Source: an uncultured Pseudomonadales bacterium (GTDB lineage: Bacteria > Patescibacteriota > Microgenomatia > UBA1400 > UBA12108). From it: DNA of 64,000 nt. A program made the position numbers and the translations under genes. The stretch's first letter is position 1. Each line of letters starts with the position of its first letter. Below, piece by piece: positions 3,170 through 47,964 of the stretch. The notes under the pieces were generated by a model that saw nothing but the letters and a program-made list of their open reading frames with translations, was not told where the DNA came from and made no database searches. The stretch is taken from the NCBI GenBank assembly GCA_964347565.1, contig CAYFZD010000001.1:3019-67018 (forward strand), read 5' to 3'.

Positions 3170-3170
3170 T

Positions 3171-13480: not shown

Positions 13481-14813
13481 AACCTGGCTACTATTCTTTT
13501 TCGCTACATTGGTCGCCTACGCTGGCTCTCTCCGTTACGGGTTCTCCCAGGACGACTGGTACTTTCTCTTGATTTCTGACGCTCACAACCTCTCTGATAT
13601 GCTTAATTTTTTTAACCCGCTTGCCCAGTCTGGCTTTGCTTTCTTTCGCCCGCTTGGTACCCAACTATATTATTTGCTCTTCAATATGCACCCACTTTCC
13701 ATGCATCTGTTTATGCTCACAGTGCAAGCTCTCAATGGCTATTTAGTTATGCGCCTGGTGGGGAGGCTTAAATTAAAGTCCCCGACTCCTCTCATTGTGG
13801 GTTTGCTCTACACGATCTCTTCTGTCCACTTCCTCTCGCTCTTCTATATCGCCGCCACCCAGCAGCTGCTCGCCGCCACCTTCTCGCTCCTCTCATTGAT
13901 CTTTTTTCTCGATAGTAAATATCGATCAAGTGCCGCGCTCTTTGCTCTCGCCTTGTTATGTAAAGAAACTGCTATTGTAGTGCCAGGAGTCGCCCTGATT
14001 CTTACTCTCATCAGCCAATTACGACCCAAGCTTAAGCTATTTTTACCCTATGCGCTCGTCTTTGTTATTTATCTCCTCATACGTCTGGCTACTAGTTCGG
14101 GCGTCCAAAGCGAATATCAACTCACCCTTGGCCCCTCCCTCCTCACCAACCTCCGCTGGTACTACTTATTTGCCGCCAACCTACCAGAAGCCTTGGTCAG
14201 CTATGGCCTACCGCGCATGGGGATCAACTTTACTCAATTCATTCACGATTTTGGCATTTCAGCTTGGGTCATCATGATCAGTACAGGTCTGATATCCCTA
14301 TTTACCTTCATTCGCCTTATATATACTCGCCGTTGGCTCTATATCTTGTGGTTTGTCGTCTCCCTCGGTCCCATCCTCCTCCTGAGAGACCACCTCTACC
14401 CGCATTACCTCGATCTCGCCCTCATTCCTTTCCTTTTATTACTCACCCAGGATTTAAAAGTCAAATACCAATACTTAATCTCTCTCATATACATATTGGC
14501 GGCGATATACTCAATCCAGTTTAGCCAGGCTCACCACTGGACTACGGGGAGGGCAATTATGTCCTCGAGTGCTCAGACAAAACTAGACTGGAGCGAGATT
14601 TGTAGCCACGACTCGGTCGCATTCGTGGGGGAGGGGAGCCGACCACTTGAGCTCTCCTACACTCTCTCTTTGGAGAATGGCCCCAGAGTAATCTGTCAGA
14701 ATCCTGCGCTCAAGGTATACTACTTGACCGCCGAAGCCTTGGCGAAGGAGGTCGGGAAGAATACAATATCAGGGGAAGCCTACCTCGTCCCAATCGACTC
14801 TGTATTTGAATAA
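13467..14813 (+). CDS. GT-C family membrane glycosyltransferase (PMT/TMTC-like)
   Basis: First loop RYGFSQDDWYFLL (DD motif) after TM1, followed by a multi-TM body. Overlaps the upstream gene by 14 nt. Confidence 0.6.
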   Translation: MPNIKTWLLFFFATLVAYAGSLRYGFSQDDWYFLLISDAHNLSDMLNFFNPLAQSGFAFFRPLGTQLYYLLFNMHPLSMHLFMLTVQALNGYLVMRLVGRLKLKSPTPLIVGLLYTISSVHFLSLFYIAATQQLLAATFSLLSLIFFLDSKYRSSAALFALALLCKETAIVVPGVALILTLISQLRPKLKLFLPYALVFVIYLLIRLATSSGVQSEYQLTLGPSLLTNLRWYYLFAANLPEALVSYGLPRMGINFTQFIHDFGISAWVIMISTGLISLFTFIRLIYTRRWLYILWFVVSLGPILLLRDHLYPHYLDLALIPFLLLLTQDLKVKYQYLISLIYILAAIYSIQFSQAHHWTTGRAIMSSSAQTKLDWSEICSHDSVAFVGEGSRPLELSYTLSLENGPRVICQNPALKVYYLTAEALAKEVGKNTISGEAYLVPIDSVFE

Positions 14814-14814
14814 T

Positions 14815-16284
14815 ATGAGCAGTCTAAACATCGATAACATCAAATTGAAGGCGTTTAAGGGAGTCTTTACCCTCACTTTCCGTCGCCTCATCCTCAAAGT
14901 GATCGACACGGTGGGTGTTATCATCCTTGCCCGCGCCCTCACTCAGGACGTCTTTGGGATTTTTGGTATTATCAGCTTCGTCGTCTTTACTTTTCTCTCA
15001 TTCTTTTCTGATATTGGTTTTGGCGCGGCACTCATCCAGAAAAAAGAAGAGCTCACTCAGAATGACATCCGCACTACCTTCACGATCCAACAGTCTCTCG
15101 TCACTCTACTCCTGATCATCGCTTGGCTTGCCTCACCCTCCATCTCCCACTTCTATAACTTGGGATTGCAGGGGATTTGGCTGATCCGCGTTCTCTCCCT
15201 CTCTCTCTTTATCACCTCTTTCAAAACTATTCCCTCGATCCTCCTGGAGCGGGAGTTGAGATTCGAGAAGCTCGTCATCCCAGAGATCATCGAGACCTTG
15301 GTTTATAACGCCATCGCTGTCTACATGGCTCTCCACGGATATGGAGTCTGGAGCTTGGTGATTGCGATCCTTGCTAGAGTAGTGACCGGTGCCCTCGCCC
15401 TCAATTTGCTCTCTCCTTGGCGTATTGGCTGGGCATACTCGGCTACTTCTGCCCGCGCACTCCTCTCCTTTGGCGTCCCTTACCAATTAAATAGTGTCTT
15501 GGCCCTCATCAAAGACAATATTACCCCCACTCTGATCGCCTATTGGTATGGTCCTGCCGCCGTGGGGTTTGTGAATTTGGCCCAAAATATCGCCACCCGC
15601 CCCATGGAGATCATCAACATTGTCTCTCGTGTGATGTTCCCAGCTTATTCACGTCTCCAGCATGACACCGAGAGACTCAAACGCTGGATCGAGAAATCGG
15701 TCTCATTCATGGCCTACCTCTATATGCCAGCCATCACCGGGCTCCTCATCACCGCTCGCCCCATCCTCGAGTATCTCTACGCCGATAAGTCAGCCAAATG
15801 GCTCCCTTCACTACCCACGCTCCTGCTTTTCTTGGCCGGCGCCTACCCGATCATTGTCACGACCACCTATACCAACGCACTCTATGCCCTGGGTAAGCCT
15901 AAGGTGGTCTTGGCGCTCATGGCGCTCTATACTACGCTCACTTGGGTACTTGGAGTCCCACTGATCTACAAATATGGCTACGTCGGTATCGCCTTAGCCG
16001 GCTTTATCATTACTTATATAACCTTCCCGATCGTGATCCGAGAAATGAACAAAGTCGTTCGCATCTCCACCTGGGATTCACTAAAGCGTCCTCTACTAGC
16101 CAGTCTGATCATGGCGGGTGTGACCTATTATGTCAACGCCACCTTTACCCACTCACTACCCTCGCTCCTTTTCACCTGTATGGTGGGAATGGTAACATAT
16201 CTCTTGGCCATCTACTTGCTAGACGGATCCAAGCTGAAAAATGAGTTTGCTAGCTGGTTTGCGCTCATCGGTCGAAGATCCTGA
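14815..16284 (+). CDS. wzx: Polysaccharide biosynthesis protein / oligosaccharide flippase (MOP superfamily, Wzx-like)
   Basis: 489 aa with about 12-14 TM helices. N-terminus KGVFTLTFRRLILKVIDTVGVIILARAL is typical of Wzx/PST family proteins. Confidence 0.7.
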   Translation: MSSLNIDNIKLKAFKGVFTLTFRRLILKVIDTVGVIILARALTQDVFGIFGIISFVVFTFLSFFSDIGFGAALIQKKEELTQNDIRTTFTIQQSLVTLLLIIAWLASPSISHFYNLGLQGIWLIRVLSLSLFITSFKTIPSILLERELRFEKLVIPEIIETLVYNAIAVYMALHGYGVWSLVIAILARVVTGALALNLLSPWRIGWAYSATSARALLSFGVPYQLNSVLALIKDNITPTLIAYWYGPAAVGFVNLAQNIATRPMEIINIVSRVMFPAYSRLQHDTERLKRWIEKSVSFMAYLYMPAITGLLITARPILEYLYADKSAKWLPSLPTLLLFLAGAYPIIVTTTYTNALYALGKPKVVLALMALYTTLTWVLGVPLIYKYGYVGIALAGFIITYITFPIVIREMNKVVRISTWDSLKRPLLASLIMAGVTYYVNATFTHSLPSLLFTCMVGMVTYLLAIYLLDGSKLKNEFASWFALIGRRS

Positions 16285-16307: not shown

Positions 16308-17927
16308 ATGAAAGAAAAAATCTCAGTTATTATCCCCACGGTGAACGCCTTTGAAGAACTCGATCTTGCGATCGAGAGTATCAAAAAAAACTCTGACCAC
16401 CCCATCGAATTTGTCATTGTCATCGACCCCGATATGAATACCGGCAAAGTAAACGATGATATCCTCAAAGTCTGTAAAAAACAAGGAGTCAAAGCCTGGG
16501 TAAACAAAGAGAATTTGGGACCCTACGGCAACTGGAACCGGGGAGCTGAGGTAGCCACAACCGATTGGCTCGTGTTTGCGACCGACGACCAATATTTTGC
16601 GCCTCACTGGGACTCTAATTTGCTCAAGTATTGGCAGCCCAAGAGACTTATTTCAGGTCGTCTCATCGAGCCTGGGATCATCCCCGTCTACAAAACCAAT
16701 ATCCAGCAAGATTTTGGGGTGCTACCCTCTGAATTTAGGGAAAAAGATTTTATCGCTTGGTGCCAAAGGCGTAAGGTAACTGGTTATACCCCAGACGGAT
16801 TCTTCATTCCCATGCTCCAGAAAAGGGCTGATTATGACGTTCTCGGTCACTATCCGGTCGCGGGCAAATTTGGGACTAGTACTGCCGTTAGTAACGACTA
16901 TCTCTATGTTCAAGCCGCACTCAAAAAAGGGTATGAGTTTGGCACCGCAGAAGACTCCTATTCTTACCATTTCCAAGCCAGTTCCTGGAAGAAAAAAACC
17001 TTGAAGCCGAGTGTCGCGGCGATTGTCCTCACCAAAAATGAAGAGCGTGACCTCGCCAAGTGTCTGAAATCTCTCGCTTGGGTCAGCGATATTTTTATCA
17101 TCGACTCTGGCTCCTCTGACAAGACTCTCTCCATCGCCAAACAATTTAAGGCCAAAATATTCACGCGAGAACTCGACAATTTTAGTGCCCAGCGCAACTT
17201 CGCCCTCTCCAAAGTAGGGAGTTACAACTGGGTACTGATGGTCGACGCCGATGAAGTGGTAGAGCCGGAGCTAGCCAAAGAACTGCAATTTTTTGCCAAA
17301 GATATCTACTTAGACGGAGTAAACGTCCCGCGCAAGAACTATATTTTTGGCAGATGGATCGAACATACCGACTGGTATCCGGATCATCGCCTCGTCTTTT
17401 TCCGTCCCAAGATGGTGCAATATGCTGGCGACGTGCATGAGCGACCTACGTTCGTGAAGGGGAACGGGACGACTGCGACCTCAACCCACCATCTACTCCA
17501 CCACAACTACGACAGTGTGCGTGAGTTCGTCGCGAAAAATCTCGTGGACTACCCAATGCAATATGCCCAAGTTTTACACGCCGACAAAGTCAAGTTCACA
17601 GCTCTAGACTTACTTTCCAAACCCCTCGCTGAGTTTATGCGACGCTTCTTCCTGACATCGGGCTACAAGGACGGTCTCTATGGTCTCATCTTGAGTGCCC
17701 TCATGGGTGTCCAAACACTTGTGGCCTACTGTTACCTCTGGGAGCTCCAGGGCAAGCGGGAGGAGCTCACGACACAGGAAACACAATCCCTATTTAACTC
17801 ACTGCGTGGCAAATCTAGTGAGCTATCCTACTGGCTCACCACTTTGGCCATAGAAAGTGCCTCCGGTGCTACCAAACTCTTCCACCGAGCTCATCGCAAA
17901 GCCTTAAAACTAGTGAAAGGCCTATGA
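16308..17927 (+). CDS. Tandem double-GT2 glycosyltransferase
   Basis: Domain 1: ISVIIPTVNAFEEL...FATDDQ. Domain 2 begins near aa 230: VAAIVLTKNEERDL...IIDSGSSDKT...VDADEVV, with a WaaE/KdtX-like amphipathic tail GYKDGLYGLIL...YLWELQG. Confidence 0.8.
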   Translation: MKEKISVIIPTVNAFEELDLAIESIKKNSDHPIEFVIVIDPDMNTGKVNDDILKVCKKQGVKAWVNKENLGPYGNWNRGAEVATTDWLVFATDDQYFAPHWDSNLLKYWQPKRLISGRLIEPGIIPVYKTNIQQDFGVLPSEFREKDFIAWCQRRKVTGYTPDGFFIPMLQKRADYDVLGHYPVAGKFGTSTAVSNDYLYVQAALKKGYEFGTAEDSYSYHFQASSWKKKTLKPSVAAIVLTKNEERDLAKCLKSLAWVSDIFIIDSGSSDKTLSIAKQFKAKIFTRELDNFSAQRNFALSKVGSYNWVLMVDADEVVEPELAKELQFFAKDIYLDGVNVPRKNYIFGRWIEHTDWYPDHRLVFFRPKMVQYAGDVHERPTFVKGNGTTATSTHHLLHHNYDSVREFVAKNLVDYPMQYAQVLHADKVKFTALDLLSKPLAEFMRRFFLTSGYKDGLYGLILSALMGVQTLVAYCYLWELQGKREELTTQETQSLFNSLRGKSSELSYWLTTLAIESASGATKLFHRAHRKALKLVKGL

Positions 17928-18850
17928 AAAAATCTCTCAAGATAAAGCACGCGGTCGTGCTTGTCAACTACAAAGTCTCAAAGGACACGATTGCTTGTGT
18001 GAAATCGATAGAAAAATGCAAAGATGCTCCCCATATTATCGTTGTCGACAATGGCTCGAGCGCAGAAGTAGTCCAAGAATTACGTGAAGCCTGTCCTGGT
18101 CTAGACATCATTGCCTCACCCACGAATGTCGGTTTCTCAGCGGGGAATAACCTTGGCATCAAAAAAGCCCTCAAGCTTGGTGCCCAGGTCGTCTATATCT
18201 TAAACAACGACACCCTCGTCGATCCCAACCTGTTTTTCCGGAGCTTCCGCTACGTGGCGGGCAAAAATCGCATCGCCGGGGGCAAAATCTACTATGCCAA
18301 AGGATACGAATTCCACGACGATCAAAAAGGGCAGGGGAATATCCTTTGGTACGCTGGGGGATACTTTAACTGGGAGAGTGTGATCGCGACTCATTACGGC
18401 GTCGACGAGGTCGACCATGGGCAGTACGACAAAATTAGGCCCGTCGACTTTATCACCGGATGTTTCCTCGCCGTCCCCCGCCAGGTTTTTCACAAGATTG
18501 GATTACTTGACGAACCTTTCTTCCTCTACCTCGAAGACACGGATTTCTGTCTTCACGCCAAAAAATTGGGTATCGAGGTCATGTACAACCCCAACTTAGT
18601 AATTTATCACTGCAACTCGAGCTCCACGGTCGCGGGGAGTCCACTGGTCGACTATTACATCACCCGTAACCGCTTCTTTATCGGCCGTCGCTATGGTACT
18701 CTCCGCCTCCGTTTTGCGCTTTTGCGCGAGGCACTATTTAGGAACTGGAGTTCGAGCGTCCGTCGCCTGGCATTTTTTGACTATCTATTTGGTAGAATGG
18801 GTAATAGAAATGAAGCAATCTTCGCCCTTGCGGCCAAATTGGATAAATAG
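17924..18850 (+). CDS. GT2 glycosyltransferase (rhamnosyltransferase WbbL-like)
   Basis: AVVLVNYKVSKDT, IIVVDNGSS and NVGFSAGNNLGI motifs. ATGA overlap with upstream gene. Confidence 0.8.
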   Translation: MKKSLKIKHAVVLVNYKVSKDTIACVKSIEKCKDAPHIIVVDNGSSAEVVQELREACPGLDIIASPTNVGFSAGNNLGIKKALKLGAQVVYILNNDTLVDPNLFFRSFRYVAGKNRIAGGKIYYAKGYEFHDDQKGQGNILWYAGGYFNWESVIATHYGVDEVDHGQYDKIRPVDFITGCFLAVPRQVFHKIGLLDEPFFLYLEDTDFCLHAKKLGIEVMYNPNLVIYHCNSSSTVAGSPLVDYYITRNRFFIGRRYGTLRLRFALLREALFRNWSSSVRRLAFFDYLFGRMGNRNEAIFALAAKLDK

Positions 18851-26961: not shown

Positions 26962-27855
26962 ATGACCAAACCTAATGTTAGTATTGTCATCCCCTCCTGG
27001 AATAGCGAAAGTCAGCTCAAACAAAATCTACCCTATGTGTTCAAAGCGGCAGAGGCCGTCAAAGCCGAGATCGTGGTAGTGGATGATGCCAGCGCCTACG
27101 ACCAATCAGCTAAATATTTAAGATCACTAGGTAATAAAATTCGTTTTTATGAGAATAAAACTAATGGCGGCTTCTCCTACACCGTCAACCGTGGAGTCGA
27201 GCTCGCTAAAGGCGATATCGTCGTACTCCTCAACACAGACGTGCGACCCTCGCCCGATTGTTTTGTCAATTCGCTCTCCAAATTTTCTGATCCCTCTGTT
27301 TTTGCCGTGACCTTCAATAGTGGCGAGGCTTGGGCTGGTGGGAGATGGGAGGGCGGACTGCTCCAGCACGCCAAAGTAGAGCCAAGCAAAGACAACGCCG
27401 ACAAACAGAATCCAAGCCTCTGGGCCTCCGGTGGACAAGCCGCCTTCGATCGTGAAAAATGGATGTTACTTGGCGGGATGGATCTCCTCTACAAGCCCTT
27501 CTACTGGGAAGACGTCGATCTAGGATACCGAGCCTGGAAGAGGGGTTGGCGCATCATTTGGGATCCCAAGAGTAAGTGTGTCCACGATCATCAAAAAAGT
27601 GTCATTGCCAGCAACTTTACTCCCGAGTTTGTCAAAGCCACCGCTCAGCGCAATCAGTTCCTCTTCGTCTGGAAAAACATCCACAACTCAGAAATGTTAT
27701 GGTCGCATCTGCGCAAAATCCCCAGTTTCCTCAAAAATTACCCTCTCCCATTCCTGCGTGCCCTGCTCCTCTTGCCCTCAGCCTTGCGGGGGAGGGGAGT
27801 CGAGCAGCGCGCCTCCACTCGCAGTGATAGTGAGATACTAAAGATCTGGAGCTAA
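26962..27855 (+). CDS. GT2 glycosyltransferase
   Basis: VSIVIPSWNSESQL, VVVDDASAYD and WEDVDLGYRAWKRGW motifs. Confidence 0.8.
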   Translation: MTKPNVSIVIPSWNSESQLKQNLPYVFKAAEAVKAEIVVVDDASAYDQSAKYLRSLGNKIRFYENKTNGGFSYTVNRGVELAKGDIVVLLNTDVRPSPDCFVNSLSKFSDPSVFAVTFNSGEAWAGGRWEGGLLQHAKVEPSKDNADKQNPSLWASGGQAAFDREKWMLLGGMDLLYKPFYWEDVDLGYRAWKRGWRIIWDPKSKCVHDHQKSVIASNFTPEFVKATAQRNQFLFVWKNIHNSEMLWSHLRKIPSFLKNYPLPFLRALLLLPSALRGRGVEQRASTRSDSEILKIWS

Positions 27856-27857: not shown

Positions 27858-29720
27858 ATGGCACCCATGGTCTCGGTCATTATTGTCAACTACAACGCCG
27901 GCAAACTGCTGTCTAAGTCTGTCAACTCTGTCATCAACTTCCCGGGGGTAGAAGTAGTGGTGGCGGACAATGCCTCCCGCGATAACTCGTTTAAAGATCT
28001 AGTCGCTGGTCCCAGAATCCCCAACTTGGTCTTGATCGACAACGGCGCCAATATAGGTTTTGGCAAGGCCGTCAACCAGGCGGTCTTAAAGAGTCACGGC
28101 GAATATGTCTATCTCCTCAACCCTGACGCCTCCCTTAGCAAGACCGCCCTCGCTAGAATGGTGGAGACCGCCAAGGAGTATGGTGATCGTGCCATCATCG
28201 CCCCGCGCCTGGAGAATCCCGATGGTACTCCCCAATCCTCCTGTTACCGCCCACAAACGATTTGGAATGCCGTCAAAGAATACTGGTTAGGCAAATCAGG
28301 GTCATACGCCAAATATCTCCCTACTGGCAAATCTCCGGTGCAGGTCCACGCCGCCGTGGCCGCTGCCTGGCTTGTACCTCGGCAGGTTTGGGACGAGCTC
28401 GGGGGACTCAGCGACCGCTTTTTCCTCTATTTTGAAGATCTAGATATGTGCGACCGTGCGGGATCAGCTGGCATTCCTGTCATCTATGATCCCCGTGCTG
28501 TAGTAAAACACGCCCACGGCGTCTCCTCGCGTACCAACCCGATCGTGCTCAAGTTATTTACGAATTCTGCTTGGGAGTACCACGGCCGTCTCAAAAAAAT
28601 CTTGATCGACTTGATTATTCGTTTGCGAGACTTCTTCGTGCCACCCATTTCCGCCAAAAAAGTCACGGGGATTATCCTCCTCTACACACTGTTTATTCTT
28701 ACTATCGCCGCCCTGGGATATTTTTTACTCCCCGCCCGCTACGCCCCTCTGGCGCTAATTCCTGACGTCTATCATTCTAATTTCTTACTCTGGTCCTGGG
28801 CCAATTTTGACGGAGAACACTATCTTAGTATTGCCCAGCATGGCTATCAAACTATTCGCGGCCAGTCAGAGTACGCCTTCTTCCCACTCTATCCACTCCT
28901 CATTAATCTATTCAGTCGCACGGGTATGAGCGCCTACCTCGCCGCTCACTTAGTCACTCTCATCTCTGGAATAGGGTTTGTCTTTATCCTCTTAAAATGG
29001 GCTTCCAAGTACACCAAAAACCCGCTGACTCTTTTGTGGCTGACTTTGCTCTCACCCGGGGCAATTTATCTCTCTGCCATCTATTCCGAGCCCCTCTTCC
29101 TTCTACTCACTGTCTCCACCTTTTACTTTTGCGATAGACGGGAGTGGGGGAGAGCTACCTTGATGACAGCGCTTGCCACCGCTACCCGCGTCAATGGTAT
29201 TTTTCTCGTTCTATTTTTGCTCCTTAAATCTCGCTCCCCCAAAGTCCTTTTAGGCTTATCCGGAATCTTGGCCTACATTTACTATCTATGGCAAAAAACC
29301 GGCGATGGCCTGGCCTTTTTTCATGCTCAGTCCGGGTGGGAAAAATCCACCCTCACCGCCCCCTGGGTGACGCTAACCAACTATTTTACTGCGCTTACTA
29401 CAGGTTTTGTGCCTGATCTCACTCACCTAGTGGTCGCCATCGAAGTCCTCGTGACAGGGTTACTCATCTATCTACTTATCAAATTTTGGCGCCAGCATAA
29501 ACTAGATTCCGCCTACAAATATTACGCCCTCGCCAATCTCGCACTCCCCCTAGCTACTGGGTCTCTTGGCTCGATGCCTCGTTTCTCACTCGTTCTCTTC
29601 CCACTCTTTCTCATGATCCCCACCCAATCTCGCTCCTCACGCATTGTTCACTCTTCATTATTTATTATCATGAGTATGATAGGTATCATCCTCTTTACGC
29701 GGGGATATTGGTATGCTTAA
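27858..29720 (+). CDS. Fusion: N-terminal GT2 + C-terminal PIG-V-like polytopic membrane domain (family A)
   Basis: N-terminal VSVIIVNYNAGKLL...FEDLDMCDRA (GT2). From about aa 270 there are roughly 9 TM helices with NFDGEHYLSIAQHGYQ...FFPLYPLLINLFS. Confidence 0.75.
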   Translation: MAPMVSVIIVNYNAGKLLSKSVNSVINFPGVEVVVADNASRDNSFKDLVAGPRIPNLVLIDNGANIGFGKAVNQAVLKSHGEYVYLLNPDASLSKTALARMVETAKEYGDRAIIAPRLENPDGTPQSSCYRPQTIWNAVKEYWLGKSGSYAKYLPTGKSPVQVHAAVAAAWLVPRQVWDELGGLSDRFFLYFEDLDMCDRAGSAGIPVIYDPRAVVKHAHGVSSRTNPIVLKLFTNSAWEYHGRLKKILIDLIIRLRDFFVPPISAKKVTGIILLYTLFILTIAALGYFLLPARYAPLALIPDVYHSNFLLWSWANFDGEHYLSIAQHGYQTIRGQSEYAFFPLYPLLINLFSRTGMSAYLAAHLVTLISGIGFVFILLKWASKYTKNPLTLLWLTLLSPGAIYLSAIYSEPLFLLLTVSTFYFCDRREWGRATLMTALATATRVNGIFLVLFLLLKSRSPKVLLGLSGILAYIYYLWQKTGDGLAFFHAQSGWEKSTLTAPWVTLTNYFTALTTGFVPDLTHLVVAIEVLVTGLLIYLLIKFWRQHKLDSAYKYYALANLALPLATGSLGSMPRFSLVLFPLFLMIPTQSRSSRIVHSSLFIIMSMIGIILFTRGYWYA

Positions 29721-31320
29721 GCTCAAGTGGATCCTCATCCTCGCCACCATCCTCCGCCTATTGTGGCTCGACAAAGTCCCCCCTAGTCTCAACTGGGACG
29801 AAGTTTCCATGGGATACACGGCTTACAGTATAGGTGAGACGGGGATGGACGAATGGGGAGAAAGATTGCCAATCTTTTTCCGTTCCTACGGAGAATGGAA
29901 GTCAGCTGTCTATATTTACTTACTCGTGCCCTTTATCAAGATATTTGGACTGAGCGCCTTTGCAGTGCGACTCCCATCGGCTCTGGCGGGTATTCTCGCA
30001 GTCTATCTCACTTACTTGATAGGCCGAAAAATCTATAGTGAAAAAGTCGGTCTCTGGGCTTCTCTTTTCCTCGCCATCTCACCTTGGCATTTGTTACTCT
30101 CCCGCCCTGCCTTCGAAGCCAATGTATCCCTCACTTTGATCCTTGCCGGCCTTTTCTTTTTTCTGCGTTCATCGACCATCGTCCATTGGCCATCGACCAT
30201 TTTGTCTGGGATTTTCCTTGGCCTCGCTCCTCATACTTATAATAGCGCCAAAGTAGTAGTACCATTTTTAGTTCTCTACTTAATTTGGCAGACCAAATTT
30301 TACAAAAATATCAAACAACTTTCACTATTTGTAGTGATACTTACAGTCTTTGCCATCCCTATTATTCTCAATCTTTTTTCTGGACGTGCCCAGTTTCGCT
30401 ATTCTCAGGTCGGGGTCAGCACTGACCAATTCGGCTTAAACACTTTTGTGAATCATCGCAATAACCCTCAATTGCCCAAACTTCTTGGCAAATTAGCCTT
30501 CAATAAATATACCTATACGCTCCACTCAACCTTAAAAAACGGTTTATCCTACCTCAACCCGGCTTTTCTGCTAGTAGAGGCAGGAGATCATACCCAACAT
30601 CATCTCCCTTATCATGGCGTCCTCTATATCGGTGAGTTTGTTTTTGTTCTTTGTGGACTATATCATTTAAGCAAAAGCTCCAATCACCATTTGCGATTGT
30701 TACCTCTCGTCCTGATTTTTCTAGGCATCATCCCAGCCGCCCTCACCCGTGATGTCGGTCACGTTTTGCGCAGTATTTTGACCTTGCCGGGTTGGCAGCT
30801 CCTAGCAGGAATTGGTGTTATTGAACTTCAAAAATTGAAAACTCCGTACTTGAAAATTGTAAATTGGTTATTGGTTATTCAAATTGCTGTCTTTATGACA
30901 GCATATTTTTTCTGGTACCCCACTGCTTACGCTCGCGATTGGCAGTATGGTCTCAAAGAAACGGCTGCCTACGTACAGGAGCATGAGGGTGAGTACGAGG
31001 AAATCGTGGTCTCAAAATGGTTCGGCGAGACCCAGCTCTTTTTGGCTTTTTACAATCGCTGGGACCCTCTCTGGTATATGGAAGCCAACAAGCAAAATTT
31101 ACGCTACGAAACAGAGGGTAAGCTCTGGTTAGACCAGCTCGAAGAGTATAGTATAGGTAAATACACATTTAAGTACCTTAAATTTGGTGAACCCGTTTAC
31201 AAAAAAACGCTCTACGTCGGCAAGTTTGACGATTTTTTTGAAAATCCTCGAACCTTGGAAACGATTAATTATCCTGACGATTCGGTGGCCGTACATATTA
31301 TGGAAGGACTACCTAAATGA
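29713..31320 (+). CDS. GT-C family membrane glycosyltransferase (ArnT/PMT-like)
   Basis: Loop SLNWDEVSMGYTAYSIGETGMDEWG (DE motif), multi-TM body and C-terminal soluble domain. 8-nt overlap with upstream gene. Confidence 0.7.
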   Translation: MLKLKWILILATILRLLWLDKVPPSLNWDEVSMGYTAYSIGETGMDEWGERLPIFFRSYGEWKSAVYIYLLVPFIKIFGLSAFAVRLPSALAGILAVYLTYLIGRKIYSEKVGLWASLFLAISPWHLLLSRPAFEANVSLTLILAGLFFFLRSSTIVHWPSTILSGIFLGLAPHTYNSAKVVVPFLVLYLIWQTKFYKNIKQLSLFVVILTVFAIPIILNLFSGRAQFRYSQVGVSTDQFGLNTFVNHRNNPQLPKLLGKLAFNKYTYTLHSTLKNGLSYLNPAFLLVEAGDHTQHHLPYHGVLYIGEFVFVLCGLYHLSKSSNHHLRLLPLVLIFLGIIPAALTRDVGHVLRSILTLPGWQLLAGIGVIELQKLKTPYLKIVNWLLVIQIAVFMTAYFFWYPTAYARDWQYGLKETAAYVQEHEGEYEEIVVSKWFGETQLFLAFYNRWDPLWYMEANKQNLRYETEGKLWLDQLEEYSIGKYTFKYLKFGEPVYKKTLYVGKFDDFFENPRTLETINYPDDSVAVHIMEGLPK

Positions 31321-34422: not shown

Positions 34423-35450
34423 AAATCGCCATTTGCACTAGCCCACTCAAAAACAGCAGTAAAACGCGTGGGGTCGGGGTCTACACGCGCGAGCTCGTGA
34501 ACGCTCTACGCACCAGCTTCCCCACAGACCAGTTTATCGAGACTACGGGCAATCCCTATCAAAGCGGGATTGACCTCGTGCACTACCCCTTCTTTGATCC
34601 CTATTTTTTGACCCTGCCCTGGCGTTATTCGCTCCCCACCCTCATCACAATCCACGACCTCATTCCCCTCAAATATCCCACTCATTTCCCCGCGGGATTA
34701 CGTGGGCGACTCAAATGGGAGGTCCAAAAGATGAGGGCCCGAGCATCTGCTGGGATCATCACCGACTCTCTTAGCTCCGCAACGGATATTCAAGAGATAT
34801 TAAAAATTAAAGAAAACCGTATCCACGTGATCCCCTTGGCGTCTGCTACCGCTCGGACTGCCATGTCTCTTGCTCCTAAAATAAAAAAACTCTACCATCT
34901 TCCCGACCGCTATATTCTCTACGTAGGTGACGTCAACTGGAACAAAAATATCCCAGGACTAATCGACGCTTTCGCCAAGTTAGACAACTCCTCGACTCAT
35001 TTAGTGTTGGTGGGTAAAGTTTTTGCCGATAAGCCAGATATCCCAGAATTCAAAGTGGTGATGGAAGCCATAAAAAAATCTGGCAAATCAGAACTAATTC
35101 ATCTCATTGGCTACGTCCCTAGTCACCACCTCTCTGGGATTTACCGGGAAGCCACGCTCTACTGCCAGCCCTCCTGGGACGAGGGGTTCGGCCTCCCGAT
35201 CCTCGAGGCTATGAAAGCCGGCTGCCCGGTGGTAAGTAGTAATCGCGGCAGTCTGCCCGAGGTGGGAGGGGAGGCTGCACTTTATTTTAACCCTAGCTCA
35301 AATGAGCTCCCAGGAGTTTTACAATCACTCCTCTCCTCTCCCGCCAAGCGGGATTCACTCAAAGAGGCGGGTCTCCTCCAAGTCAAACAATTTACTTGGG
35401 ACAAAACTGCCAAACTGACCAGGGAGATTTATGCCCAAATGGTTGGTTGA
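34419..35450 (+). CDS. GT4 glycosyltransferase
   Basis: GFGLPILEAMKAGCPVVSSNRGSLPEVGGEAA signature. ATGA overlap with upstream gene. Confidence 0.85.
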   Translation: MKIAICTSPLKNSSKTRGVGVYTRELVNALRTSFPTDQFIETTGNPYQSGIDLVHYPFFDPYFLTLPWRYSLPTLITIHDLIPLKYPTHFPAGLRGRLKWEVQKMRARASAGIITDSLSSATDIQEILKIKENRIHVIPLASATARTAMSLAPKIKKLYHLPDRYILYVGDVNWNKNIPGLIDAFAKLDNSSTHLVLVGKVFADKPDIPEFKVVMEAIKKSGKSELIHLIGYVPSHHLSGIYREATLYCQPSWDEGFGLPILEAMKAGCPVVSSNRGSLPEVGGEAALYFNPSSNELPGVLQSLLSSPAKRDSLKEAGLLQVKQFTWDKTAKLTREIYAQMVG

Positions 35451-36474
35451 TATTTTCTCATCGACCATTAACCATTGGCCATTAGCCATTAGTTTTCCAT
35501 ACTACGATACTGATCTTGCCCCCTTTTATTCTCGCTTCTGGGCCACTTTTGCGCATTTTGACGGGATTCATTACTTGCGTATCGCACAACATGGATACGC
35601 CGACTGGGGTAGCCAGGCCTTTTTCCCCCTCTACCCGCTCCTAGTCCATCTACTCTCGCCCTTGTCTCCCTCGCCCCTAGCGGCAGGACTCTTTATTTCC
35701 TGGGCCTCGCTAATTTTTGCCATTGTAGGATTGCGTCGCCTTTTCCCTACTAGACCTCATTTGTTTTGGCTTGTGCTCGCTTTCCCCACGGCCTTTTTCT
35801 TTTTTACTGTTTATACCGAGTCTCTCTTTTTCGCGCTCTCTATTTGGTTTTTTGTCTTTTTATCACGTCAAAAATGGTGGCTCGCCGCTCTCCTCGCTGG
35901 TCTCGCTTCGGCCACCCGCCTGGTCGGTGTTTTCCTCGCCCTTAGTCTCTTGATCGAACTCTTCCGTCACCCATTATCCATGATCCATCGATCATTTATT
36001 GTCCTTTTCTCTGTCTCTGGACTTCTTGCCTACATGTATTTCCTATACCAGACAACCGGTGATCCACTCCTGTTCTTTCACGTCCAACCTATCTTTGGTG
36101 GAGGCAGGAGTGGGGGAGAGCTGATTCTGCTGCCCCAAGTCATATATCGCTACGCCAAAATTTTACTCACGACTAGCTACGACACTTTTGTTTTTTGGCG
36201 CTCATTTCTCGAACTTGGCTTCCTTACTTGGGCACTGTCATCTATTATTAAAAAGTTTAAAACCATACCTCTCTCTGCCAACTTCTATCTCATTCTCTCA
36301 GTTATCTTGCCCACGCTCTCTGGCTCCCTCTCATCCCTCCCTCGTTATCTCCTCGTCCTGACCCCTTGGCTATTGCCAGAGAGTAAGAGGGGGATACTGC
36401 TATACCTCGCCCTCGCCATCCCCCTGTTTGTACTTCTGATCTTACAGTTCGCAAGGGGTATATTTGTGAGCTAG
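35431..36474 (+). CDS. PIG-V-like polytopic membrane protein (family A paralog)
   Basis: HFDGIHYLRIAQHGYADWGSQAFFPLYPLLVHLLS plus about 9 TM helices. Confidence 0.6.
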   Translation: MPKWLVDIFSSTINHWPLAISFPYYDTDLAPFYSRFWATFAHFDGIHYLRIAQHGYADWGSQAFFPLYPLLVHLLSPLSPSPLAAGLFISWASLIFAIVGLRRLFPTRPHLFWLVLAFPTAFFFFTVYTESLFFALSIWFFVFLSRQKWWLAALLAGLASATRLVGVFLALSLLIELFRHPLSMIHRSFIVLFSVSGLLAYMYFLYQTTGDPLLFFHVQPIFGGGRSGGELILLPQVIYRYAKILLTTSYDTFVFWRSFLELGFLTWALSSIIKKFKTIPLSANFYLILSVILPTLSGSLSSLPRYLLVLTPWLLPESKRGILLYLALAIPLFVLLILQFARGIFVS

Positions 36475-36488: not shown

Positions 36489-37574
36489 ATGAAAAAAGAT
36501 TTGTTGATCATCACGCTGCTATTCACATTTATTTCCTTGGTATTTTTTCTCTTCGCCAAAACTACGAGGGGAGGACTAGACAGTGTCTACAAAGCCTGGG
36601 ATGGGCCCAGCTATGTGATCGTCGCAGAGAGCCTCTATGTCCCCTCAGACGCTGTCTTGTACAACAGTATTCAGTCACCAGATATCCGCCCAGATTTTAC
36701 TTTCCTCCCCGCGCATTTCCCCCTTTACCCCCTCCTCATCCGGACATTCTCCCCCATTGGCTACTATCAAGCCATGCTCTTCGTCTCGCTTCTTTTTAGT
36801 CTCGCGACTCTGTTGGTCTTCTACCTGCTCGCTCGTCAACTGGGTCTCTCTGCCCCACTGCTGTTGACCTTGCCGATGATCCTCTTGCCACCCCGCTGGT
36901 TTATCATCGCCCATACCGGTAGCTCAGAACCCATTTTTTTCTTTTTTGTTTTGACCAGCCTCTTGTTTTATTTTCGTCGCCTCCCCTGGGCATCCGCGCT
37001 CGCGGCGAGCCTGGCTATGCTGACGCGTCCCCAAGGAGCTCTCCTGGGGCTCGGCTATCTCTTTATTGCTCTCATTCACCTCTACCGCTCTAGAGATCTA
37101 CGGCTCATCTTAAAGCGATACACCCAATACCTCCTCATCCCGCTCACCCTCCTCGCTGTATTTTGGTTCTATCAGCGCCAGACGGGAGATTTTTGGGCTT
37201 TCTTCTCAGCGATCTCGATTTTTCACCATTTTAGACTCAGCCTCTTCCCGACTTTTAATTTTGGGGCGCCTAATATCGAGACCTTTTGGCTTGAGGCCAA
37301 TGTGCTCTACTATTTCCTCTATCTTGCAGCCATCTTACGTTTGTATCACTCTGGTAAGTGGCAATTGGGGACCATCGGTCTCGTCTTTTATCTACCTCTT
37401 TTATTCCTCCAACACACCGACATCAGTCGCTACGCACTCCCCCTGATGCCGCTGGTCTTTATCGCTTTTGCGCAAGGTATGGCGAGCATGCCATTCAACC
37501 TCGCCACCATCCTCAGCATCCCGTCGATCTTCCTCTACACCACCAACTTTATTCTCTATAATCGCGCGCCCTGA
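36489..37574 (+). CDS. PIG-V-like polytopic membrane protein (family A paralog, divergent)
   Basis: AWDGPSYVIVAESLY...AHFPLYPLLIRTFSP plus about 9 TM helices. Confidence 0.55.
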   Translation: MKKDLLIITLLFTFISLVFFLFAKTTRGGLDSVYKAWDGPSYVIVAESLYVPSDAVLYNSIQSPDIRPDFTFLPAHFPLYPLLIRTFSPIGYYQAMLFVSLLFSLATLLVFYLLARQLGLSAPLLLTLPMILLPPRWFIIAHTGSSEPIFFFFVLTSLLFYFRRLPWASALAASLAMLTRPQGALLGLGYLFIALIHLYRSRDLRLILKRYTQYLLIPLTLLAVFWFYQRQTGDFWAFFSAISIFHHFRLSLFPTFNFGAPNIETFWLEANVLYYFLYLAAILRLYHSGKWQLGTIGLVFYLPLLFLQHTDISRYALPLMPLVFIAFAQGMASMPFNLATILSIPSIFLYTTNFILYNRAP

Positions 37575-37596: not shown

Positions 37597-38364
37597 ATGT
37601 CACTCTCTCATTACGCCGAACTAGTGCGCGAGCTCTCCATCCGCGAGATCAAGGCCCGTTACAAGCAATCTGTCCTGGGTTATGCCTGGGTCATTTTGAA
37701 TCCATTTTTCCAGATGCTCGTGATGTCTTTTGTCTTCTCCAAAATCCTGCGATTCCCCACCCTCGGCGTACCCTATGCCATCTTTCTCTACGCTGGGCTC
37801 TTGCCCTGGAATTTGTTTGCTAACTCCCTAGTCAGTAGTACCAACGCTCTCGTCAGTAACGCCTCTCTACTCACGAAGATTTACTTCCCGAGGGAAATCT
37901 TCATCATTAGTACGACCCTCGCCAAGATCGTGGACTTTTTCCTCGCTTCCACAGTCTTCATTCTCTTTATGATTTTTTATCAACTCCCTATTACCTGGAA
38001 TATCCTCTGGTTCATCCCGATTTTCGCCATCCAGCAGCTCTTTACCTATGGTCTCTCTCTCATCCTCGCCTCGCTCAATCTTTTCTACCGAGACATCCAG
38101 TATGTGCTGACCCTGATCGTCATGGTCTGGATGTATTTAACTCCCGTTATCTACCCTACCGAGATCTTCCCCGAGCAATATAAGTGGATCTTCCAGCTCA
38201 ATCCCATGGCCGTGATCATCAACGCGTACAGGCAGACCATCCTGGGAGGGGGTATGCCCAATCTCACGAGTCTGGGGATCGGTCTCTTCGTTTCCCTCCT
38301 TGTCACCTTCGTTGGCATCAAACTATTTAAAAAATTAGAAGGGGTCTTTGCGGATGTAGTGTAG
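37597..38364 (+). CDS. wzm: ABC-2 type polysaccharide/teichoic-acid exporter permease (Wzm/TagG-like)
   Basis: LSIREIKARYKQSVLGYAWVILNPFFQML is the canonical ABC-2 N-terminus. 6 TM helices. Confidence 0.8.
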   Translation: MSLSHYAELVRELSIREIKARYKQSVLGYAWVILNPFFQMLVMSFVFSKILRFPTLGVPYAIFLYAGLLPWNLFANSLVSSTNALVSNASLLTKIYFPREIFIISTTLAKIVDFFLASTVFILFMIFYQLPITWNILWFIPIFAIQQLFTYGLSLILASLNLFYRDIQYVLTLIVMVWMYLTPVIYPTEIFPEQYKWIFQLNPMAVIINAYRQTILGGGMPNLTSLGIGLFVSLLVTFVGIKLFKKLEGVFADVV

Positions 38365-38397: not shown

Positions 38398-38784
38398 ATG
38401 ACTAATATCGACAAAAATAAATATCTTAAGTTCGAAGAACTTCCCGTATGGAAGATTAGTTATCAACTAGCCTTGAATATTTACCGTGCTACAATGAATT
38501 TTCCAAAGGCAGAAGTATTTGGATTAACATCACAGATCAGACGATCCTCTTCTTCTGTTGGGGCAAATATTGCTGAAGGATTTTATAAAAATACTACTCC
38601 AGATCTAGTTCACTTCCTGTACATCGCACGAGGATCTGCAGGAGAAACACTACATCACCTTATGATGTCATACGATTTGAAATATATATCTGACGAGGAT
38701 TTTGTTTCTCTCAAAGACCAAGTAGAAAATACGCTTAGACAACTTTCCGCTTGGATAAAATCATTGGAAAATAAGCATCAATAG
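38398..38784 (+). CDS. Four-helix-bundle protein (23S rRNA intervening-sequence protein family)
   Basis: 128 aa. LPVWKISYQLALNIYRATMNFPK...GANIAEGF...YIARGSAGE pattern of the TIGR02436-type family. AT-rich relative to its neighbours. Inserted between wzm and wzt. Confidence 0.65.
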   Translation: MTNIDKNKYLKFEELPVWKISYQLALNIYRATMNFPKAEVFGLTSQIRRSSSSVGANIAEGFYKNTTPDLVHFLYIARGSAGETLHHLMMSYDLKYISDEDFVSLKDQVENTLRQLSAWIKSLENKHQ

Positions 38785-38785: not shown

Positions 38786-39538
38786 ATGACCATAAATTTA
38801 GCCATCAGCCATCAGTCATCATCCATTAAAATAACTAACGTAAGTAAGTTATTTTTCAAGCAGGAGCAGAAAACGTTCAAAGAATTCTTGCCCGCCATCT
38901 TCACGGGCAAGAAAACAAGGGAGTGGTTCTGGGCACTCCAGGATATCAATCTGGAAATCAGGGCAGGGGAGACGCTCGGGATCATGGGACCCAATGGGAG
39001 CGGCAAGTCCACCCTCCTCAAGCTGATCGCTGGCGTCTCCCAGCCCACCAAAGGGACTATCACCGCGTTGGGTAGGGTAGCCCCCCTCATCGAGCTCGCG
39101 GCCGGGTTCCACCCCGAGCTCACCGGGCGCGAGAACGTTTATCTCAATGGCATCATCTTGGGTATGTCGCGCGCAGAGGTTGCGGACAAATTTAAGACCA
39201 TCGTCGATTTTGCCGAGCTTTGGGACTTTATCGACTCGCCGGTCAAGCACTACTCCTCTGGTATGTACCTGCGCCTCGCCTTTTCCGTGGCCATCCATAC
39301 TGACCCAGATATTCTCTTACTCGACGAGATCTTGGCGGTAGGGGATGAGCAGTTCCAGGCCAAATGCTTTGCCAAACTACGATCTCTCCAAAAACAAGGG
39401 AAAACCATCATCTACGTCTCACATGACAGCCAATCGGTCCGTGATTTTTGCACTAGGGCTATTCTGATTACCAAATCTAGGATAATCAAGGACGCCACCC
39501 CAAAAGTTATTTGTGATCTCTACTCTGCGCAGTCATAA
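38786..39538 (+). CDS. wzt: ABC exporter ATP-binding protein (Wzt/TagH-like, short form)
   Basis: Walker A GPNGSGKSTLLK, signature YSSGMYLRLAF and Walker B ILLLDEILAVGD. No C-terminal carbohydrate-binding extension. Confidence 0.85.
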   Translation: MTINLAISHQSSSIKITNVSKLFFKQEQKTFKEFLPAIFTGKKTREWFWALQDINLEIRAGETLGIMGPNGSGKSTLLKLIAGVSQPTKGTITALGRVAPLIELAAGFHPELTGRENVYLNGIILGMSRAEVADKFKTIVDFAELWDFIDSPVKHYSSGMYLRLAFSVAIHTDPDILLLDEILAVGDEQFQAKCFAKLRSLQKQGKTIIYVSHDSQSVRDFCTRAILITKSRIIKDATPKVICDLYSAQS

Positions 39539-44705: not shown

Positions 44706-45699
44706 AAATGTCTTTCAAAATATTTTCCCATCGTTTCTCCCAGGTGTGTTCTTTTAGTACTCTGCGGTAACTATTCTCTGCGATCCACTCTTGGTACTGT
44801 GGGTGTAGAAGGCAATATTGTACTGTGCGGATCAAGTCTTCCTCGCTGTGGTACCCCACAACGTCTACTCCATAAGTAAACAACGGGGCCATCTCAGTGT
44901 TAAATGAAGTCACAATACACGTACGACACGCCGCGGCCTCAAACAGTCCAACTTTTACATTATTGTATCCTGCGTAGGTTTGTGAGAATGACAAATATAT
45001 TCTCCCTGAATTAATTGCCCTCGTGTGATCCAGTCCATGGACTTCGTTACTAGATTGATCCCATCCCGAGCCGTATGTTTTAACGCTAAAGTACTCACGG
45101 AGTGCACTAACTATCTCAATCCTCTCCGGCCTAGCATGTCCCACTACCACCACGTCATATTGTTTTGATACTTTTCGTAACGGTTTATGTAGAGACGGAG
45201 AGGCTGCAAACGGCAGATGTCTATACTTGGAACTTTGCGGGTACTGTCTCTTTAGGGAGTGAAGAGAATTGGTATAAAACAAATCAAAATTATCGCCGTA
45301 AATCTGGCCGTTATCTGCAAATACGTCCGGGTCCGACAGTTCTATCCCCACGCATACTACTCTGCGGTTACTCAGCCACTCCTTGGTCTGCTCGGTTATC
45401 GCCATTCCCCCCGCATTGAGTACAACATAGTTTGGTTTGAGTTTGCCAACTAGTTTCACCAGTTTATTGTGATTTATCCACCGAATAGGGTAGGTGTGCC
45501 CTGGTCTAAGCTCCTCGCTATACCAATTCCCTGTGCTATTATCATAGATTTTTGTATCTACCAGCTCAGTGTGTCCTTTGTTCTTTAACTCCTGAGCCAT
45601 CAAATACACGACATCATTCTCTCCCATCCAGTAACTGCCAAGATGTACACCTGTTAAATTCATAAGTATTATCGTAAAATACATTATAGTATGAAACAA
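44689..45699 (-). CDS. CgeB-like glycosyltransferase (Glyco_trans_1_2 type)
   Basis: C-terminal GLFEAAACRTCIVTSF...YHSEEDL...YRRVLKEHTWEKRWENIL is typical of the CgeB/DUF3880 family. Confidence 0.55.
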   Translation of the reverse strand: MFHTIMYFTIILMNLTGVHLGSYWMGENDVVYLMAQELKNKGHTELVDTKIYDNSTGNWYSEELRPGHTYPIRWINHNKLVKLVGKLKPNYVVLNAGGMAITEQTKEWLSNRRVVCVGIELSDPDVFADNGQIYGDNFDLFYTNSLHSLKRQYPQSSKYRHLPFAASPSLHKPLRKVSKQYDVVVVGHARPERIEIVSALREYFSVKTYGSGWDQSSNEVHGLDHTRAINSGRIYLSFSQTYAGYNNVKVGLFEAAACRTCIVTSFNTEMAPLFTYGVDVVGYHSEEDLIRTVQYCLLHPQYQEWIAENSYRRVLKEHTWEKRWENILKDIYEIRS

Positions 45700-47964
45700 G
45701 CCAAAACCTCACCTATTATCCTTGGCTTCGCTTTTACCGACTCCTTGTCATTTAGATTGTGGCAAATCCTCTGCAAGTTCAAACAAATCACGGCCTACGA
45801 CGAATACAGACATATTACCGCCCTAACCAAAAGATATACGCGCGGCACCGACAATTGGATAAAGAAAGTCATCCTCCCGTCCAAGGCTTTTAAGCGTTGG
45901 CTCACTTACTACTCTCTTAAAATTCGCCTAAAAGATAAAATTTTCTTGACCGGAAAAAAATATTTACCCACTGTACTCAAAGTTTTTCTCAAAAAACACG
46001 CTCCTGCCTACTTCCCAGTGCCCATGAAACCGATTCCTCCAAGCATTCAGCACAAGTGGAACGAATGGGTTAACACCCGCTCAAATGCCAGTCTCGACAT
46101 TATCAACTTTGGGGTGATCGCCTACAATTACCGCATCCAGCGTCCACAGCACCTAGCCACAGAAATGACCAAATTGGGCCATCGGGTTTTCTACATCGAA
46201 AATGAGTTTGTCTATACTTCAAGTCACAAATTACCACAACTCACGGTGACCCAGCAAAGTGACAACCTTTTTGTAGTTAAATTATCGTCATCGATTAATT
46301 ACTTTATCTACCGGGATTCAATATCGGAAAAAGATAAAAAAATTCTCCTCTCGTCATTTAAAGTCTTGTTAAGGAAAGCTCGCATTCTCAATCCGGTAGC
46401 CAAGATCGACCACCCGTTCTGGGGATCTCTTGTCAATGATTTAAGCATGCCGGTTATTTACGACGCTATGGACCTTCACGCCGGTTTTAAAGAGACCTCG
46501 GCTTATAATCTGGAAAAAGAACAAACTCTCCTAAAACAATCCGACATTATTCTCTCCAGTTCCGACTACCTTACCAAACAATTTCACAAATTTAAATCTA
46601 AGACCTTATCACTCAAAAACGCCGGCGAGTATTCACACTTCGCGCATAATCAAATACTTAGGAATTCTCCACCTCCGGACTTTGCAGGCCTCAAACACCC
46701 CATCATCGGTTACTACGGAGCCATTGCCGATTGGTTTAACCCGGATCTAATAGAGGGAGTTGCCAAATCAATCCCCGAAGCCAGCATTGTGCTCATTGGT
46801 CACGTTAGCAACGAGAGGCTTTTGACACTGGCCAGTCGATATCCAAACATTCATTTATTAGGAGAGAAGTCATACTCCGACCTTCCCCGCTACCTAGCCA
46901 GCTTCGATGTCTGTCTCATTCCCTTCAAATTGACCAAACTCATCCAGGCTACAAACCCTGTCAAGATCTATGAATATTTTGCCTCTGGCAAACCGGTAGT
47001 GGCCACGTCTATACCGGAACTCATGCCCTACAAGAAAATTATTTACATGGCTGATACCGTCAGCACATATGTTTCTGCTGTCAAACGCGCAATCAAAGAA
47101 AACTCGGCTTTAAAACAAAAGTTACGCATTGCCGTAGCCAAAGCCAATACCTGGGTCCATCGAGCTAAGGTGCTCGAAGATCACCTTTTGCGCACCTTCT
47201 ACCCTAAAGTGAGTGTTATTATTCTAGTTTATAACCACAGTGATTTATCCAAAATCTCCATAGATACCACGCTAGATCGCTCAAAATATCCTAACTTTGA
47301 AGTTTTGGCTGTAGATAACTGCTCCGATCAAGAAACCAGGAAAATGCTTGAGCAGTATCGCGGTCGTAAAAATATCCGGCTAATTTTTAACTCAAAAAAT
47401 TATGGATTTGCCAAAGGTAATAATATTGGGATGGAGCGTGCGCGAGGTGATTATCTTCTCCTACTCAACAACGACGTTCGCGTAACTCCCGGCTGGATTG
47501 AGAGGCTTGTTTTCCATGCCAAATCAAACAATGTAGGGTTAGTTGGACCCGTTACCAATAGTATCGGCAACGAATCAAAGATCAAAATTCGCTACGACTC
47601 TGAAAATCAGAGCGAGATGGAAATGCAGTCCGCAGATTATGTATATGCTCACTGGGGAGAAACTCTAAAACTTCGTAATATCGCAGCCTTTGCTTGGATA
47701 AAGTCTAGGATGGTCTATAACAAAATTGGCGGGCTAGACGATCGTTTTGGCAGAGGACTATTCGAAGACGATGATTACTGTGTGCGCGTAGGTAATGCTA
47801 AATTGGATATTTTGTGTGCCGAAGATGCTTTTGTTCACCACTACGGTGGGGCTAGCACTAACTGGGGTAGTCCGGAATTCAAATTATTATTTAACACCAA
47901 CAAAACCAAATTTGAGACTAAATGGAAAATGAAATGGACTCCACATAAATACCGCAAAGAATAA
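45691..47964 (+). CDS. Multidomain glycosyltransferase: N-terminal unknown domain + GT4-like domain + C-terminal GT2 domain
   Basis: Middle region HPIIGYYGAIADWFN...IYEYFASGKPVVAT (GT4 C-terminal domain). C-terminal region KVSVIILVYNHSDL...LAVDNCSDQ...FEDDDYC (GT2). The start overlaps the divergent cgeB-like start by 9 bp, so the true start is uncertain. Confidence 0.65.
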   Translation: MKQAKTSPIILGFAFTDSLSFRLWQILCKFKQITAYDEYRHITALTKRYTRGTDNWIKKVILPSKAFKRWLTYYSLKIRLKDKIFLTGKKYLPTVLKVFLKKHAPAYFPVPMKPIPPSIQHKWNEWVNTRSNASLDIINFGVIAYNYRIQRPQHLATEMTKLGHRVFYIENEFVYTSSHKLPQLTVTQQSDNLFVVKLSSSINYFIYRDSISEKDKKILLSSFKVLLRKARILNPVAKIDHPFWGSLVNDLSMPVIYDAMDLHAGFKETSAYNLEKEQTLLKQSDIILSSSDYLTKQFHKFKSKTLSLKNAGEYSHFAHNQILRNSPPPDFAGLKHPIIGYYGAIADWFNPDLIEGVAKSIPEASIVLIGHVSNERLLTLASRYPNIHLLGEKSYSDLPRYLASFDVCLIPFKLTKLIQATNPVKIYEYFASGKPVVATSIPELMPYKKIIYMADTVSTYVSAVKRAIKENSALKQKLRIAVAKANTWVHRAKVLEDHLLRTFYPKVSVIILVYNHSDLSKISIDTTLDRSKYPNFEVLAVDNCSDQETRKMLEQYRGRKNIRLIFNSKNYGFAKGNNIGMERARGDYLLLLNNDVRVTPGWIERLVFHAKSNNVGLVGPVTNSIGNESKIKIRYDSENQSEMEMQSADYVYAHWGETLKLRNIAAFAWIKSRMVYNKIGGLDDRFGRGLFEDDDYCVRVGNAKLDILCAEDAFVHHYGGASTNWGSPEFKLLFNTNKTKFETKWKMKWTPHKYRKE

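Follow-up and report, generated by a model that had tools for sequence, protein, structure and literature searches.

A PIG-V-like GT-C domain fused to a GT2 glycosyltransferase in a large glycan locus of an uncultured Microgenomates-type bacterium

The glycan locus and the fusion gene

The host is an uncultured, small-genome member of the CPR (Microgenomates-type), and the fusion gene lies in a very large cluster for sugar polymers. This glycan locus extends over at least 64 kb and carries approximately 14 GT-C-like genes in a genome of less than 1 Mb. No GPI pathway context is found in the window, that is, the whole stretch of 64,000 nucleotides that was analyzed. The features considered here are:

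4078–5292, plus strand: GT2 with a GtrA transmembrane domain (PF00535, PF04138), of the DPMS/PgfS/ArnC type; the NCBIfam PgfS, ArnC, PpgS and AglJ models match over most or all of the GT-A domain
5294–6406, minus strand: subgroup B stand-alone paralog of the membrane domain, 370 aa, between two DPMS-type GT2 genes
6425–7135, plus strand: DPMS/ArnC-type GT2; NCBIfam ArnC (1e-20), PgfS (3e-20) and Dol-P-hexose transferase (6e-16) over most or all of the domain
26962–27855, plus strand: upstream GT2 of the glycan-elongating class, 297 aa; 27% identical to the fused GT2 over 231 aa (E 4e-13)
27858–29720, plus strand: fusion gene, 620 aa, comprising GT2 (GT-A fold), amphipathic linker and GT-C (PIG-V-like), as defined by ORF, Pfam, AlphaFold2 and orthologs
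27858–28541, plus strand: GT2 catalytic domain, residues 1–228, with D37-N38, N88-P89-D90, E193-D194 and H218/H220
28542–28727, plus strand: linker, two basic amphipathic helices (residues 229–260) followed by transmembrane helix 1 (TM1; residues 266–290)
28653–29717, plus strand: GT-C membrane domain, residues 266–620; E411, R444 and R575 are kept in both subgroups
28803–28901, plus strand: first outer loop of the GT-C domain, with N316-F-D318-G-E-H321-Y322 and F341-F-P-L-Y-P-L-L
29713–31320, plus strand: PMT_2-type GT-C, 535 aa (PF13231, 57 bits)
35431–36474, plus strand: subgroup A stand-alone paralog, 347 aa, 36% identical to the C-terminal half of the fusion
36489–37574, plus strand: subgroup B stand-alone paralog, 361 aa, immediately 5′ of Wzm
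37597–38364, plus strand: Wzm, ABC-2 permease (PF01061 and PF00005 across Wzm/Wzt)
38398–38784, plus strand: small ORF between Wzm and Wzt
38786–39538, plus strand: Wzt, ATPase (Pfam as for Wzm)

The fusion gene begins 2 nt past the stop codon of the upstream GT2 gene and its end overlaps 29713–31320 by 8 nt. An ortholog of the upstream GT2 precedes the fusion or a stand-alone GT-C in loci L001, L002, L003, L081, L084 and L085, and a counterpart of 29713–31320 is the downstream neighbor in all syntenic loci. The paralogs at 35431–36474 and 36489–37574 stand in tandem directly 5′ of Wzm and Wzt, as an earlier sequence-only reading had described, and a Wzx-type flippase is encoded at 14806–16284.

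Pfam analysis of the fusion product reveals a GT2 match (PF00535) at residues 6–126 (E 1e-16) and a Mannosyl_trans2/PIG-V match (PF04188) at residues 308–454, the latter reaching 47.8 bits (gathering score 22.4) and covering profile positions 52–209 of 443 only. Almost every fused ortholog has a precomputed PF04188 match, as do close stand-alone relatives. Both families thus occur in one 620-aa product, which bears out the covalent fusion previously proposed. The AlphaFold2 model (pLDDT 91.2) has a pTM of 0.82, which suggests that the domains are packed against each other in a defined way. The membrane module of the C-terminal half has approximately 10 helices in a GT-C fold, and fold comparison using models of one member per subgroup matched the membrane parts to GT-C enzymes only; together with PF04188, this supports the proposal that the membrane domain is a GT-C glycosyltransferase.

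The linker helices were assigned from the modeled secondary structure, together with counts of hydropathy and charge. Lys and Arg are strongly biased, with 31 in the 271 residues before TM1 versus 3 in the 70-residue loop after it, and taken together these data predict that the chain crosses the membrane, from inside to outside, in the linker segment. D318 is found 28 residues past TM1, where two loop helices meet in the model. The predicted layout consequently has two characteristics of a GT-C enzyme: the N-terminus lies in the cytoplasm, and the first extracytoplasmic loop bears a conserved acidic residue, here D318, the putative catalytic base.

Compared in pairs, the fusion orthologs share on average 59% identity in the GT2 half and 54% in the GT-C half. 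Invariant in 38/38 are D37, N38, N88-P89-D90, E193-D194, H218 and H220 of the former and N316, F317, D318, G319, H321, Y322, F341-P343, E411, R444 and R575 of the latter. D318 is moreover invariant in alignments A1, A2 and A3, including both subgroup alignments, while position 320 is Glu in only 28 of the 38 orthologs and Ile, Leu or Pro in the three window paralogs. The identities and the invariant catalytic-type residues suggest that both halves are under selection.

Paralogs, distribution and separability

The two-part motif [FW]DGxx[YF][LV]x[IV][AVE], followed after 21–39 residues by [FH]FPL[YF][PA][LG]L, is found exactly four times when the window is translated in all six frames, once in each of the four open reading frames in which it had been noticed (5294–6406, 27858–29720, 35431–36474 and 36489–37574, all of which are present), and never in 100 shuffles. 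BLASTP places the copies in two subgroups. The C-terminal half of the fusion is 36% identical to the 35431 copy (E 1e-31 to 6e-34), and the 5294 and 36489 copies are 30% identical to one another (E 4e-25 to 2e-29). Between subgroups A and B the values are mostly 1e-6 to 6e-4, and the 35431 and 36489 copies are not significantly related by BLASTP alone (E 0.2 to 1.7). Profile–profile comparison links the subgroups with 99.6% probability (E 1e-24, 261 columns). The BLASTP and profile evidence shows that the four copies are homologous beyond shared hydrophobicity. The sequence-only reading had counted at least five copies; with HMMs built from these four and from the wider family of each subgroup, run with --max against window ORFs of at least 80 aa, no fifth was found, and beyond the four nothing scored below E 0.02.

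The description of this family as PIG-V-like stands for the fusion, which passes the PF04188 threshold, and falls for subgroup B (5294 and 36489). None of the three stand-alone copies (5294, 35431 and 36489) matches PF04188 at E ≤ 1. Such a match is absent from all 25 subgroup B family members, where weak PMT_2, PMT or GT87 matches are found instead; GT87 (PF09594) against the 35431 copy gave a nonsignificant E of 0.5. The 35431 copy represents the type that is conserved across Microgenomates-type loci, in approximately 55 of which an ortholog of about 385 aa follows a GT4 gene.

A search of other genomes, as had been proposed, recovered the same GT2–GT-C architecture in approximately 51 protein clusters (90% identity) from independent metagenomes; these are 44–100% identical, the ortholog in L001 being 79% identical, and belong to one small clade. 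The reading frame is unbroken in the window and in L001, L002 and L081, with neither a stop codon nor a start signal between the domains. These independent assemblies and clusters refute an assembly or gene-calling artifact of two adjacent genes, the probability of which we consider negligible.

The two halves also exist apart. Stand-alone GT2 genes resembling the N-terminal half occupy the same locus position in L032, L036 and L037 (Daviesbacteria), and stand-alone GT-C genes resembling the C-terminal half do so in L003, L084 and L085; genomes with the latter lack this GT2 at the corresponding position. Adjacent separate genes for the two halves were found in none of the loci examined. In L032, L036 and L037 the GT2 gene is at one flank of a PMT_2 array, and a GT-C of the 35431 type is at the other flank in different loci. 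The cluster holding both fusion halves is conserved across Microgenomates-type genomes, the co-occurrence of the separate GT2 and GT-C genes in one cluster being surmised from loci that each cover one flank. An unbootstrapped neighbor-joining tree points to at least two apparent losses of the GT2 half. L083 carries a degraded or frameshifted remnant, the GT2 part of which is 31–43% identical and the GT-C part 63%; this assembly has approximately 1.5× coverage and the frameshifts may be errors. As expected of a Rosetta-stone fusion, the halves are separate genes elsewhere at the same locus position. The argument from it to a functional module adds little, because the halves already share an operon in relatives, the GT2 is dispensable in sister lineages and no adjacent split pair was found.

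Class of the fused GT2 and proposed function

The NCBIfam matches that span the whole GT-A domain of the fused GT2 are to rhamnosyltransferase, MftF and EpsD models only. The rhamnosyltransferase model TIGR01556 matches residues 30–223 at 36.5 bits, below its cut-off of 200.55, so that the domain resembles the glycan-elongating class and is not a member of this named subfamily. No match at E ≤ 1 was obtained to the ArnC, PpgS, PgfS or Dol-P-hexose synthase models, and AglJ matches the N-terminus only (E 0.05). By comparison, the controls 4078–5292 and 6425–7135 match ArnC, PgfS, PpgS and Dol-P-hexose transferase at 1e-14 to 1e-20 over most or all of the GT-A domain, and are candidate polyprenyl-phosphate sugar (donor) synthases. 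NF046093 (AZOBR_p60025) is a weak NCBIfam match.

A PDB sequence search with the ortholog profile ranked DPMS (2e-8), ArnC (6e-5) and GtrB (8e-3) behind chondroitin synthase, TarS and TarP; all matches were to the N-terminal GT2, and the membrane half had none. Among structural matches of the N-terminal half, WrtF (22.7), chondroitin polymerase (21.3) and GlfT2 (19.2) scored above GtrB (15.3), DPMS (15.2) and ArnC (14.3). The fused GT2 is only 13–19% identical to characterized enzymes, and its acceptor class is assigned by family-level and fold-level ranking. On this basis it resembles glycan-elongating enzymes such as WrtF, chondroitin polymerase, GlfT2 and the rhamnosyltransferases, and not polyprenyl-phosphate sugar synthases such as DPMS, GtrB and ArnC. 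The earlier description of this domain as a sugar-phosphate-lipid synthase is thus not upheld; the DPMS-type enzymes of the window are separate genes.

Within the window, the full-length paralogs of the fused GT2 are the GT2 of a GT4+GT2 protein (45691–47964), 17924–18850 (rhamnosyltransferase/GlfT1-like) and 26962–27855, whereas the DPMS-type GT2s align over the first ~100 residues only. A recent tandem duplication of 26962–27855 as its origin was rejected, the two being 27% identical and having separate orthologs in Daviesbacteria loci. Relatives in Proteobacteria adjoin Wzm/Wzt genes (L023, L044, L057, L076 and L078). The amphipathic helices of the linker are kept in stand-alone GT2 relatives of 255–292 aa; relatives also occur as soluble proteins of 260–280 aa and as parts of giant multi-GT2 proteins. 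Other metagenomic proteins join this GT2 subfamily to three or more further GT-C types recognized by Pfam (GT87/PIG-M-like, PMT_2 and PTPS_related), a recurrence that hints at tighter functional coupling than mere co-localization. Proteins of 604–660 aa from Gallionellaceae and Sulfuricellaceae, which resemble the N-terminal half, were considered as further GT2–GT-C fusions and rejected; they consist of an SDR epimerase and a GT2 with at most one hydrophobic segment.

The reading we favor, at a probability of roughly 0.55, is that of a bifunctional enzyme that has an active site on either side of the cytoplasmic membrane and serves a single cell-surface glycan pathway with both. The GT2 domain would be cytoplasmic and held at the membrane by the two amphipathic helices, where it would extend a lipid-linked glycan intermediate by a residue from a nucleotide sugar, in the manner of the GT2s that elongate O-polysaccharides or wall polysaccharides. 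The first candidates for this nucleotide sugar are GDP-mannose-derived 6-deoxy sugars such as GDP-Fuc, UDP-GlcA and UDP-hexoses, given the window's homologs of GDP-mannose 4,6-dehydratase (1375–2544) and of UDP-glucose/GDP-mannose dehydrogenase (10–636) and its related SDR enzymes (633–1574 and 3162–4124). Transmembrane helix 1 would then lead outward to the first outer loop bearing D318, H321 and Y322, and the outer site would transfer a sugar from a polyprenyl-phosphate sugar to an exported glycan or glycoconjugate. The separate DPMS-type enzymes (4078–5292 and 6425–7135) would supply this donor, which would subsequently be flipped. With the halves as autonomous modules, the benefit of fusion would presumably be co-localization and fixed stoichiometry and not substrate channeling. 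The analysis shows the identities and folds of the domains, the logic of the topology, and the conservation, distribution and separability of the fusion; that both halves are active, which substrate classes they use and that they act on one polymer is what we infer.

Other divisions of labor were weighed. The sequence-only reading had the fused GT2 make a polyprenyl-phosphate monosaccharide inside for use by the attached GT-C outside. The topology of the fusion is compatible with this, GT-C enzymes require such lipid-phosphate donors, several GT-C families are joined to the same GT2 subfamily, and amphipathic helices past the GT-A core could make a lipid-phosphate site. Nevertheless, the synthase models match the two separate genes and not the fused domain, the synthases rank below chondroitin synthase, TarS and TarP in the PDB search, the GT-C is retained without this GT2 in sister lineages, and relatives of the GT2 exist as soluble proteins and within giant multi-GT2 proteins, all of which makes this model very unlikely. 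The sugar-acceptor class of the fused GT2 would suit a scheme in which a DPMS-type product is extended by the fused GT2 to a polyprenyl-phosphate oligosaccharide, flipped, and transferred en bloc by the GT-C. In the Lactococcus pellicle polysaccharide, WpsC and WpsJ are proposed to work in this way, the C55-P-sugar being elongated inside by cytoplasmic glycosyltransferases for later GT-C transfer (PMC10821137). The Wzx-type flippase would be available, and the scheme accounts for the repeated joining of this GT2 subfamily to GT-C domains; we consider it unlikely, however, as GT-C copies without a GT2 are common, the GT2 half has apparently been lost repeatedly, and the proteobacterial relatives lie in ordinary Wzm/Wzt O-polysaccharide loci.

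A single catalytic half, with the GT-C merely anchoring or scaffolding the GT2, or with the GT2 being a decaying passenger, would fit the apparent losses in the tree and the diverged GT2 part of the L083 remnant. Against it are the equal conservation of the halves, the invariant catalytic-type residues in 38 intact fusions and the possibility of sequencing error in L083, and we regard it as very unlikely. A broader idea, to which we give little credence, is that the fusion is a recurrent design in uncultured bacteria, in which one particular GT2 subfamily readies a lipid-linked substrate inside and the attached GT-C receives it outside. What is readied might be the final sugar added in the cytoplasm or an oligosaccharide donor on polyprenyl phosphate, and the GT-C membrane domain might help translocation, forming a self-contained make-pass-transfer unit. 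The idea is kept open because the GT2 subfamily is joined to PIG-V-like, GT87/PIG-M-like, PMT_2 and PTPS_related domains alike.

As a rule, membrane-spanning glycan assembly is carried out by separate proteins. How the inside and outside steps are coordinated is poorly understood, and a natural single polypeptide with GT-A inside and GT-C outside is a compact system in which to study this coordination by structural and biochemical means. The fusion also gives a first handle on bacterial PIG-V-like enzymes; a literature search of incomplete coverage, and hence weak evidence, returned nothing on bacterial PIG-V-like function or on the GT2–GT-C architecture. The fusion is unfit as evidence that this GT2 supplies a lipid-linked donor. 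The size of the locus and its number of GT-Cs suggest that these episymbiont-type bacteria build an elaborate surface polymer.

Comparison with known systems

In its organization the glycan locus recalls the assembly of mycobacterial arabinogalactan/LAM or of streptococcal rhamnose polysaccharide. A cytoplasmic GT2 and a polytopic membrane domain with an outward active site are also found in a single polypeptide in Ppm1 (Rv2051c) of Mycobacterium tuberculosis, which has been used as a Rosetta-stone argument. In Ppm1 the GT2 is a polyprenyl-phosphate mannose synthase and the membrane domain an Lnt-type acyltransferase; it thus differs from the present fusion in that its GT2 is a donor synthase and its membrane domain is not a GT-C.

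The likeness to PIG-V/Gpi18 (GPI mannosyltransferase II, GT76) consists of the Pfam match above threshold for the C-terminal half and the GT-C fold. For PIG-V, an acidic D/ExE motif has been reported in the TM1–TM2 loop (PMC6056205); the fusion has D318-G-E320 in its first outer loop, with E320 variable (28/38 orthologs). In contrast to PIG-V, the C-terminal half of the fusion is bacterial, lacks GPI context, is approximately 130 aa shorter and is joined to a GT2, and the subgroup B copies have no PF04188 match at all. PimE (GT87), at about 380 aa, is a minimal GT-C in which the catalytic D58 lies at a helix junction of the outer loop with Y62 four residues on (PMC12041525). D318 and Y322 of the fusion are spaced likewise, a correspondence drawn without superposition, whereas the fusion family has no significant GT87 sequence match (PF09594 against the 35431 copy, as above).

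The best structural matches of the N-terminal half are GT2s of the WrtF, WbbL and GlfT2 type, which serve ABC-transporter-dependent polysaccharides. WrtF has a C-terminal amphipathic membrane helix, and genes of this type adjoin Wzm/Wzt (PMC12595478). They are 13–16% identical to the N-terminal half, and none is joined to a GT-C domain. The window also holds a parts list equivalent to that of the GtrA/GtrB/GtrX, GacI-J-K-L, PgfS/PgfM and WpsA/B-G-J systems (PMC10821137), with DPMS-type GT2s (one having a GtrA domain), a Wzx-type flippase, many GT-Cs and Wzm/Wzt. In those systems, however, the partner GT2 of the GT-C is a separate lipid-phosphate sugar synthase, whereas here it is joined to the GT-C and resembles the glycan-elongating class.

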